4,496 nucleotides of DNA from a virus. Lineage: Duplodnaviria > Heunggongvirae > Uroviricota > Caudoviricetes. The stretch's first letter is position 1; each line of letters opens with the position of its first letter. The DNA lies in the IMG/VR virus record IMGVR_UViG_2740892234_000016. One strand, given 5' to 3'. This document shows positions 2,200 through 2,491 of the stretch, piece after piece. Both the position numbers and the translations under genes were made by a program. The notes under the pieces were generated by a model. That model saw only the letters and a program-made list of their open reading frames with translations. It made no database searches and was not told the DNA's origin.

Positions 2200-2279
2200 C
2201 AACCACGGAATGCATTTTTCTGGCAGCGGGCTTCATATTCTGTGTGCTTATGCTTGCCGACATGGGACTTGTTCAATGA
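2196..2279 (+). CDS. Small hydrophobic peptide (27 aa), possible membrane micro-protein
   Basis: It translates MTTTECIFLAAGFIFCVLMLADMGLVQ and is overlapped as ATGA on both sides (methyltransferase stop at 2197-2199, next ATG at 2276-2278). Its first 60 nt are duplicated at 1305-1364 with one synonymous change. Confidence 0.35.
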   Translation: MTTTECIFLAAGFIFCVLMLADMGLVQ

Positions 2280-2491
2280 CACCTCAGCAGGAAAACGCCC
2301 TTCGCAGCATTGCCCGTCAGGCTAATTCTGAAATCAAAAAAGCCAGACAGCAGTTTCCGGATAAAAACGTCGATGACATTTGCCGTAGCGTACTGAAGAA
2401 GCACCGCGAAACGGTAACGCTGATGGGATTCACACCGACTCATTTAAGCCTGGCGATCGGCATGTTAAACGGCGTCTTTAAGGAACGGTGA
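2276..2491 (+). CDS. Hypothetical protein (71 aa), unknown function
   Basis: ORF MTPQQENALRSIARQANSEIKKARQQFPDKNVDDICRSVLKKHRETVTLMGFTPTHLSLAIGMLNGVFKER. I prefer the ATG at 2276 over the track start at 2177, because the upstream extension runs out of frame through the methyltransferase 3' end and the 27-aa ORF. No motif recognised. Confidence 0.5.
   Translation: MTPQQENALRSIARQANSEIKKARQQFPDKNVDDICRSVLKKHRETVTLMGFTPTHLSLAIGMLNGVFKER

Follow-up and report, generated by a model that had tools for sequence, protein, structure and literature searches.

We analyzed a 4,496-nt stretch of DNA from a tailed bacterial virus (Caudoviricetes; IMG/VR record IMGVR_UViG_2740892234_000016), referred to below in its full length as the window, with the focus on a gene for a 71-aa protein at positions 2276-2491. 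This open reading frame (ORF), correctly located by the original prediction made from the sequence, extends from ATG at 2276 to TGA at 2489-2491 and encodes MTPQQENALRSIARQANSEIKKARQQFPDKNVDDICRSVLKKHRETVTLMGFTPTHLSLAIGMLNGVFKER. It is, with near certainty, an intact allele of orf61, an accessory gene that lambdoid phages carry in their exo-xis region. The gene and its immediate surroundings comprise the following features:

1642-2199, + strand: Dam-type N6-adenine DNA methyltransferase of phage type, 185 aa (PF05869, E=2.3e-56; TIGR01712, 165.6 bits)
2186-2199, + strand: junction GGGAGGCTGC-ATGA, with a Shine-Dalgarno sequence and a start codon overlapping the Dam stop codon (read from the sequence)
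2196-2279, + strand: micro-ORF of 27 codons for the hydrophobic peptide MTTTECIFLAAGFIFCVLMLADMGLVQ (ORF list)
2276-2491, + strand: 71-aa gene of the Orf61 family, near-certain intact allele of lambda orf61 (phrog_303, tblastn, AlphaFold2 and the ratio of non-synonymous to synonymous substitution rates, dN/dS)
2336-2341, + strand: run of six A residues (A6) within the 71-aa gene (comparison with lambda and VT2-Sakai)
2488-2583, + strand: 31-codon ORF with a GTG start on the orf61 stop codon and an ATG at 2494, crossing the terminator hairpin, status uncertain (ORF list)
2512-2540, + strand: hairpin AGGGAGCT-ACA-GGCTCCTT (stem-loop 2512-2530), then a T-run (scan and folding)
2590-2808, + strand: TraR/DksA-type zinc-finger protein, 72 aa, homologue of lambda Orf73 (PF01258, E=2.7e-9; phrog_54, E=3e-26)

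Identity of the 71-aa gene

The profile search confidently assigned the 71-aa product to PHROG 303 (E=4.7e-36), with residues 1-71 aligned to profile positions 23-93 of 101, and tblastn reported 100% identity in at least 104 phage records, including VT2-Sakai, 933W-type, EDL933-Stx and Stx2 II. Residues 23-93 of the "orf61" product of Shiga toxin (Stx) phages match the protein with 100% identity, and the VT2-Sakai record describes the identical ORF as "similar to orf61 protein of bacteriophage lambda". The genes exo-orf60a-orf63-orf61-TraR are syntenic in lambda and VT2-Sakai, the published exo-xis block reads orf60a-orf63-orf61-orf73-ea22 (PMC8614690), and the pL-operon position (between exo/orf60a and the TraR-like orf73, with xis and int after it) is found in the window in the same order as in lambda, VT2-Sakai and an Escherichia coli chromosome. 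Matches to positions 1640-2600 of the window, mostly to its orf61 end, occur in 3316 of 5426 complete E. coli genomes (~60%), and 308 of these 3316 carry the complete Dam/micro-ORF/orf61 arrangement.

Full-length homologues were identified in prophages of Klebsiella, Yersinia, Enterobacter, Shimwellia, Rouxiella and Tolumonas, and in two length classes of the family dN/dS is 0.09 (337 pairs) and 0.27 (140 pairs). Because of these low values and of the full-length homologues in other genera, the 71-aa ORF is not a chance ORF, and the evidence favors its translation. The family exhibits the pattern NALRxIAR..N.E.K ... LGF....L...IGxLNGxF.ER, in which N7 is invariant and A13, G62, N65 and G66 are conserved in at least 90% of the members.

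Compared with Orf61 of the Stx phages (Phi24B vb_24B_7c, VT2-Sakai orf10 and 933W-type; PHROG 303), the window agrees in all 71 residues, in the micro-ORF preceding the gene and in the t2 hairpin and the TraR/Orf73 homologue following it. The Stx-phage proteins are however annotated as 93 aa long, from a start 66 nt further upstream than 2276, and are preceded by orf63, whereas here a Dam methyltransferase gene lies upstream; the homology breaks exactly at the start of the micro-ORF. The unnamed Orf61-like proteins from prophages of Klebsiella, Yersinia, Enterobacter, Citrobacter, Shimwellia, Rouxiella and Tolumonas are likewise basic, 66-78 aa long and encoded in an early-left operon, usually near xis/int and before a TraR homologue, and they retain the signature N-A-L-R-x-I-A-R...N-x-E-x-K...L-G-F...I-G-x-L-N-G-x-F-x-E-R. 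They differ in showing only 30-50% identity and in lacking the micro-ORF: the start codon of their genes lies directly at an ATGA junction with the preceding gene, which usually encodes a methyltransferase.

The designation of the gene as uncharacterized in the original prediction is therefore wrong, as orf61 is a named exo-xis gene with published phenotypes (PMC6213356, PMC4195576), a structural model (PMC8614690) and a CRISPR interference (CRISPRi) screen (PMC10695390). The same prediction was right in kind, since the gene belongs to the early-left (pL) operon of a lambdoid element by gene order and was found non-essential in lambda by the CRISPRi screen (PMC10695390). It is thus partly supported, and the basic verdict is that of a known accessory gene. 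What the present analysis adds to the description of orf61 are useful leads: the 71-aa start, the micro-ORF relay, the frameshift in lambda as an account of its weak phenotypes, the rejection of the ZapA and homeodomain labels, and the association with methyltransferases.

The micro-ORF and the translation start

The 71-aa gene was originally placed immediately downstream of the methyltransferase gene, which holds insofar as it follows Dam, but the 27-codon micro-ORF lies between them. The proposed start-coupling to this micro-ORF is borne out by the sequence: the TGA stop codon of the micro-ORF lies in the ATGA at 2276-2279 that overlaps the start of the 71-aa gene. The start of the micro-ORF lies in a second ATGA, which overlaps the Dam stop codon and follows GGGAGG (2186-2191) at a distance of 4 nt. 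The Shine-Dalgarno sequence before ATG 2276 is weak (GGGA, 8 nt upstream), and for this reason the expression of the 71-aa gene would rest on the putative coupling, which is probably needed for it. A structured RNA element mediating the coupling was considered and rejected, as the RNA around the two start codons folds no better than its shuffled versions (z=+1.1); Rfam reported no match in the window.

The micro-ORF (2196-2279 in the window, 2421-2504 in the lambda locus L001) encodes a strongly hydrophobic peptide resembling a membrane helix. It is conserved in lambda, Stx phages and Dam-type prophages, without annotation in RefSeq/PGAP. The orf61 loci of genera other than Escherichia lack it, and there orf61 begins directly at the junction. 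Both the ancestral and the present start read ATGAC, and the micro-ORF may have arisen between them as an insertion of ~80 nt. In 74 of 84 E. coli-type loci the micro-ORF peptide is identical. Across these loci the comparison of reading frames comprises only eight polymorphic sites, five of which are synonymous in the frame of the micro-ORF (the others give T/A, E/K and V/I). Six of the eight fall inside the extension of the 93-aa form, where one is synonymous and five are non-synonymous (G/R, G/E, G/R, H/Y and C/Y).

Distant homologues favor the start at 2276. The profile search against 1.84 billion cluster representatives returned 72 clusters, whose complete distant members are 66-78 aa long and align from residue 1. 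In Klebsiella and Enterobacter phages the homologues begin M-T-P, their ATG overlapping the upstream stop codon as ATGA, and the Yersinia homologue starts with V-T-P from a GTG located 95 nt after the upstream stop. A GGGAGGCNGC-ATGA junction, as found here before the micro-ORF, precedes orf61-like genes behind unrelated methyltransferases in many loci. PGAP annotates the 71-aa form, and in the model of the 93-aa form residues 1-19 have no secondary structure and a predicted local distance difference test (pLDDT) score below 50. We favor the 71-aa form, rather than the 93-aa annotation, as the conserved unit.

Predicted fold and domain searches

The AlphaFold2 model of the 71-aa form (pLDDT 89) comprises helices 3-26, 32-49 and 54-64, and the protein is predicted to be a soluble, strongly basic three-helix bundle. 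Its isoelectric point (pI) is 10.0 and its net charge +5; the family as a whole is basic, with pI >8 in 29 of 31 members and a median net charge of +5. The conserved residues N7, K/R10, K/R14, N17 and K/R21 are spaced i, i+3, i+7, i+10, i+14 and lie on one face of helix 1, so that N7, R/K10, R/K14, N17 and K21 are predicted to form a solvent-facing polar and basic stripe. Helix 3 and the G-x-L-N-G cap are predicted to be hydrophobic or structural; positions 57, 58, 59, 61, 63 and 64 of helix 3 are 61-100% hydrophobic and 0-16% basic in the family. This pattern would be compatible with binding of nucleic acid or of an acidic partner by helix 1.

The absence of a recognizable motif, asserted in the original prediction, holds for curated domain libraries, as Pfam and NCBIfam reported nothing at the cut-off for either the 71-aa protein or the micro-ORF, though PHROG 303 does match. 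At E<=1 PADLOC returned 0 families, whether queried with the micro-ORF, the 71-aa form or a 94-residue translation that spans the 93-aa form. The best hit of the sequence-profile search of PDB, a dynein light chain with E=0.027, is meaningless, Foldseek found no PDB match with E <2, BFVD contained only uncharacterized family members, and three single distant homologues used as queries against IMG/VR retrieved nothing. The Pfam, NCBIfam, PADLOC, PDB-profile and Foldseek searches thus gave no confident match to a housekeeping family, and the three-helix model found no specific counterpart in PDB. An Xre-type controller (C) protein of a restriction-modification system was also considered and rejected, since no helix-turn-helix (HTH) Pfam family matched at E<=1 and the model has three helices, while the Xre fold has five.

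Gene neighborhood

We surveyed 63 loci with family members, comprising the window, annotated phages, one genome contig and IMG/VR contigs of three subfamilies. In 53 of the 63 a DNA methyltransferase gene lies directly upstream, nearly always ending between -4 and +5 nt from the start codon chosen by the script (in many of the loci scored as +5 the true start is at the ATGA overlap). These loci are not phylogenetically independent, which weakens the methyltransferase link. The upstream enzymes belong to five unrelated Pfam families, namely Dam (PF05869), MT-A70 (PF05063), D12 (PF02086), N6_N4 (PF01555) and C5 (PF00145), and fusions of Dam with C5 or PAPS-reductase domains as well as one DndB gene were also found in this position. 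Despite being unrelated, the upstream proteins (Dam, MT-A70, D12, N6_N4, C5, DndB, PAPS-reductase-like and sigma-70-r4-like; L003-L005, L028-L087) mostly end with ...EAA, ...KAA or ...EAS. They share these ends because the junction DNA, GGAGGC(N)GC-ATGA, is common to the loci, which in turn places a module boundary inside the 3' end of the upstream gene.

Among eight remote lineages the methyltransferase is adjacent in three (Dam in Tolumonas, MT-A70 in Rouxiella and Dam in a metagenomic sequence), one gene away in two and ~1 kb away in one, and in the remaining two none was found within 3.5-4 kb. The metagenomic Dam/Orf61 pair adjoins lysis genes rather than int. The commonest downstream neighbor of the family is a TraR homologue (21 loci), and a protein predicted to be Xis-like from its sequence follows in 20. 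In ~90% of the E. coli loci (lambda and Stx type) orf63, not a methyltransferase gene, lies upstream, and the break occurs exactly at the start of the micro-ORF. The association with methyltransferases is therefore strong but not universal. The coupled position suggests one of two things: either the activity of Orf61 is tied to DNA modification, or orf61 serves as the conserved 3' anchor of a slot in which methyltransferase genes are swapped.

The frameshifted allele of lambda

The lambda gene (lambdap37) occupies the equivalent locus between orf63 and t2/orf73, but it carries a run of seven A residues (A7) where the window (2336-2341) and the Stx phages, as seen in VT2-Sakai, have A6. In consequence of this frameshift lambda is matched by tblastn in two pieces in different frames, with ~97% identity at the DNA and protein level on either side, and its product is truncated to 61 aa, which comprise the upstream extension, residues 1-22 of the 71-aa protein and seven out-of-frame residues. 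The remaining two thirds of the gene stay open in a frame that carries no annotation, and the family profile still matches it at 72.8 bits. Lambda Orf61 has been described as a protein that "appears truncated" and models as unstructured (PMC8614690). Judged from its sequence, lambda orf61 looks like a pseudogene or a gene dependent on +1 slippage. The frameshift may account for the weak phenotypes reported for lambda as compared with Phi24B, and because of it lambda is ill-suited to the study of orf61.

Local double frameshifts around the A-run occur in several E. coli orf61 alleles (proteins P0021, P0025, P0032 and P0069; e.g. ...EIKKSQTAVSKNV...), which points to the A6/A7 tract as a hotspot of repeated slippage. 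The A7 lambda-type orf61 was also found, with 100% protein identity, on contigs (L010-L023) of assemblies labeled Shewanella, Bradyrhizobium, Chromatium, Pseudomonas, Paenibacillus, Kitasatospora, Oceanobacillus and others. Lengths of ~48.4 kb were found for several of the contigs, and these sequences are almost certainly contaminations of public assemblies with lambda DNA. The record of "Campylobacter phage CJLB-4" contains the two-piece lambda-type match as well.

The predicted terminator and the 31-codon ORF

The hairpin at 2512-2530, followed by TTTTTT, has a folding energy of -19 kcal/mol (z=-3.9), which none of 200 shuffled sequences equaled. Together with the T-run it is nearly the same as t2, the predicted terminator between orf61 and orf73 listed by Bloch et al. 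(PMC4195576), with one base different in the tail after the T-run, and it is this published predicted terminator. In lambda the level of mRNA is lower downstream of t2 (PMC4195576). The 71-aa gene had been described as the last one before a terminator-like hairpin; it is the last sizeable gene there, but the 31-codon ORF at 2488-2583, encoding MNMKSKIIRELQAPFLLFAFILKRINQQFRD, runs through the hairpin. One lambda record annotates a version of this ORF as a 29-aa hypothetical protein. A gene for a 31-aa peptide in this region is reported from ribosome profiling, according to PMC8614690, and may be the ORF at 2488-2583.

Composition of the window

The window is the early-left (pL) arm of a lambdoid prophage. 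Its other features are:

to 288: 3' end of bet
285-965: exo
956-1144: orf60a (DUF1317)
1117-1308: orf63 (DUF1382)
1365-1374: run of 10 N
1375-1491: 3' end of exo, repeated
1482-1649: orf60a, second copy
2856-3134: DUF4222 gene
3106-3477: HTH_17 excisionase-like ORF, 123 aa
3333-4496: tyrosine integrase

Positions 1640-2600 recur at 99.9% identity, without the N gap, in complete E. coli chromosomes, where the order is cIII-kil-gam-bet-exo-DUF1317-Dam-[71 aa]-TraR-DUF4222-xis(pseudo)-intD, beside a tRNA-Arg gene and fimZ. RefSeq names the Dam gene of this 99.9% identical prophage region "phage N-6-adenine-methyltransferase". The N run is bordered by sequence found twice in the window, as the repeats 852-1111/1378-1637 (3' end of exo and orf60a, 96% identical) and 1305-1364/2196-2255 (start of the micro-ORF, 98% identical). 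Complete genomes contain exo-orf60a-Dam without the duplication seen in the window. Two contigs that ended in repeats common to two lambdoid prophages, one with orf63 and the other with Dam upstream of the micro-ORF, appear to have been joined by scaffolding to give the window. The terminator-like hairpins at 1026-1048 and 1552-1574, one inside each copy of orf60a, correspond to the published predicted terminator t1.

The HTH_17 ORF overlaps the start of int by ~145 nt in a different frame, and RefSeq keeps only a 66-nt remnant of it as a pseudogene. In other phage contigs (e.g. L071 and L069), however, the orf61-like genes are followed by ORFs of 117-123 aa whose C-terminal tails are similar (...RRSCT...), and the long form of the excisionase-like ORF may be genuine.

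Function and alternative explanations

Deletion of orf61 from Phi24B raised the numbers of lysogens and survivors, delayed induction and impaired adsorption, with minor effects in lambda (PMC6213356). A frameshift introduced into plasmid-borne orf61 delayed phage development (PMC4195576). The gene is dispensable for plaque formation. The best overall explanation, which we regard as probable rather than secure, is that the window carries an intact orf61, translated through a relay, whose 71-aa basic product acts as a binding protein favoring lytic growth. Judging from the sequence and the comparison with related loci, orf61 would be transcribed early from pL, within the leftward operon from exo to int. 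Ribosomes terminating on Dam would restart at the ATGA behind GGGAGG, translate the micro-ORF and initiate once more at the second ATGA (2276), and the t2 hairpin, as indicated by published quantitative PCR and by prediction, would lower transcription into orf73 and beyond. The 71-residue Orf61 would be a non-enzymatic binder that places the helix-1 stripe on nucleic acid or on an acidic partner, and this binding would tilt the balance between lysis and lysogeny towards lytic growth, the direction being given by the Phi24B deletion phenotypes. An analogy in the mode of action alone is offered by other small early proteins of lambda, i.e. Orf73/TraR, which binds RNA polymerase (PMC9239242), and Kil, Gam and CIII as annotated in RefSeq. 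They share with Orf61 the operon, small size, non-essentiality and early expression, but have no kinship with it in sequence or fold.

Several points weigh against this explanation. The Phi24B phenotypes could be due to polar or cis effects of the deletion, as conceded by the authors (PMC6213356), and the published orf61 deletions also removed a region that overlaps the micro-ORF. The binding mechanism is drawn from charge, conservation pattern and predicted fold only. The relay has to compensate for the weak Shine-Dalgarno sequence before ATG 2276, and the preference for the frame of the micro-ORF over that of the extension comes from the eight polymorphic sites described above. Furthermore, in a prophage of Escherichia sp. 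E1V33 with a DndB gene upstream (L009, 3935-4003) the junction is shortened by 14 nt; the micro-ORF has no start there, and the strong junction ATG reads in the orf61 frame, predicting a 93-aa-like product. An N-terminally extended form of Orf61 is thus conceivable.

If this extended form were the true product, as annotated in Stx phages, translation would begin at ATG 2210 with MHFSGSGLHILCAYACRHGTCS followed by the 71 aa (N-terminal peptide MHFSGSGLHILCAYACR), and the micro-ORF would be a by-product. The extension is included in the Stx-phage records and in the PHROG 303 profile, its frame is open from 2177, and the E1V33 prophage has its strong ATG in frame with an equivalent extension. We nevertheless consider this very improbable, since the extension occurs in no homologue outside Escherichia, is unstructured in our model (pLDDT <50) and differs between the published models, five of its six polymorphisms are non-synonymous and radical, most of them being silent in the micro-ORF frame, the ATG at 2210 falls within the micro-ORF and lacks a Shine-Dalgarno sequence, and PGAP calls the 71-aa form instead. 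The name "cell division protein ZapA", attached to many members of the clusters in RefSeq/PGAP and to two phage records, would imply a protein that binds FtsZ. It can be traced to a weak similarity to Pfam PF05164 (E=0.014), which at 16.1 bits remains below the gathering score of 23.8 and covers only residues 3-35 (profile positions 16-48 of 88). NCBIfam reported no match, ZapA was absent from the structural and PDB sequence-profile matches, and the predicted three-helix bundle is unlike the ZapA fold, which consists of an alpha/beta head followed by a long coiled coil. Such a role is extremely improbable; the sub-threshold partial score and the fold effectively refute membership in the ZapA family, and the name should be disregarded. 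There is also the published proposal, made for residues 24-93 of Phi24B Orf61, of a homeodomain-like transcription factor binding specific DNA sequences with helix 3 in the major groove. The three-helix model superposes on the PAX3 homeodomain (3CMY, 1.83 A), whence DNA binding was proposed (PMC8614690). Our AlphaFold2 model exhibits the same three helices, the family is basic and a Gly residue is conserved in the turn between helices 2 and 3. However, neither an HTH or homeodomain match in Pfam nor a structural match to homeodomain or HTH proteins was found, helices 1 and 2 are much longer than those of homeodomains, and the conserved basic residues would lie on helix 1. Because helix 3 is conserved as hydrophobic, the major-groove picture is disfavored, and we judge it quite improbable.

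A further possibility is that Orf61 is an accessory factor linked to methyltransferases, which would modulate or target methylation, read methylated DNA, or shield the phage and the host from type IV restriction or from other effects of promiscuous methyltransferases. The mostly coupled methyltransferase genes upstream in 53 of 63 loci, their origin from five unrelated Pfam families besides the Dam fusions and the DndB gene, the proximity retained in the remote lineages (adjacent in 3/8, one gene away in 2/8, ~1 kb in 1/8) and the Dam/Orf61 pair located beside lysis genes rather than int all speak for such a link. It is nonetheless rather unlikely to explain the function: the commonest E. coli arrangement (~90% of loci) has orf63 upstream, two remote lineages have no methyltransferase within 3.5-4 kb, one small protein would hardly contact five unrelated enzymes specifically, the shared ...EAA ends fit a recombination boundary of a cassette slot equally well, the loci are not phylogenetically independent, and PADLOC gave no match. 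In the most far-reaching version, which we mention as a speculation and consider unlikely, Orf61 proteins would be dedicated partners of orphan DNA-modification enzymes of phages (Dam, MT-A70, D12, N4/N6, C5 and DndB/PAPS-reductase fusions), coupled in translation to whichever of these enzymes fills the slot, and reading methylated DNA, tuning methylation or neutralizing methylation-dependent host restriction. In lambda and Stx phages the partner would then have stayed when orf63 took the place of the methyltransferase gene.

Implications

In published work overexpressed Orf61 was insoluble and formed aggregates, and attempts to purify it failed. The 22 additional hydrophobic, Cys-rich residues of the 93-aa form may be the cause of this insolubility, and the earlier biochemistry with the insoluble protein may have used the mis-annotated 93-aa or 61-aa construct. 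For the choice of constructs it matters that the conserved protein is the 71-aa form and that the Cys-rich, hydrophobic extension of the 93-aa form is probably not translated. The position of orf61, coupled to methyltransferases of five families, is a testable lead towards a possible link with DNA modification. orf61 is one of the five conserved exo-xis genes that sway Shiga-toxin prophages between silence on the one hand and lysis with toxin release on the other.

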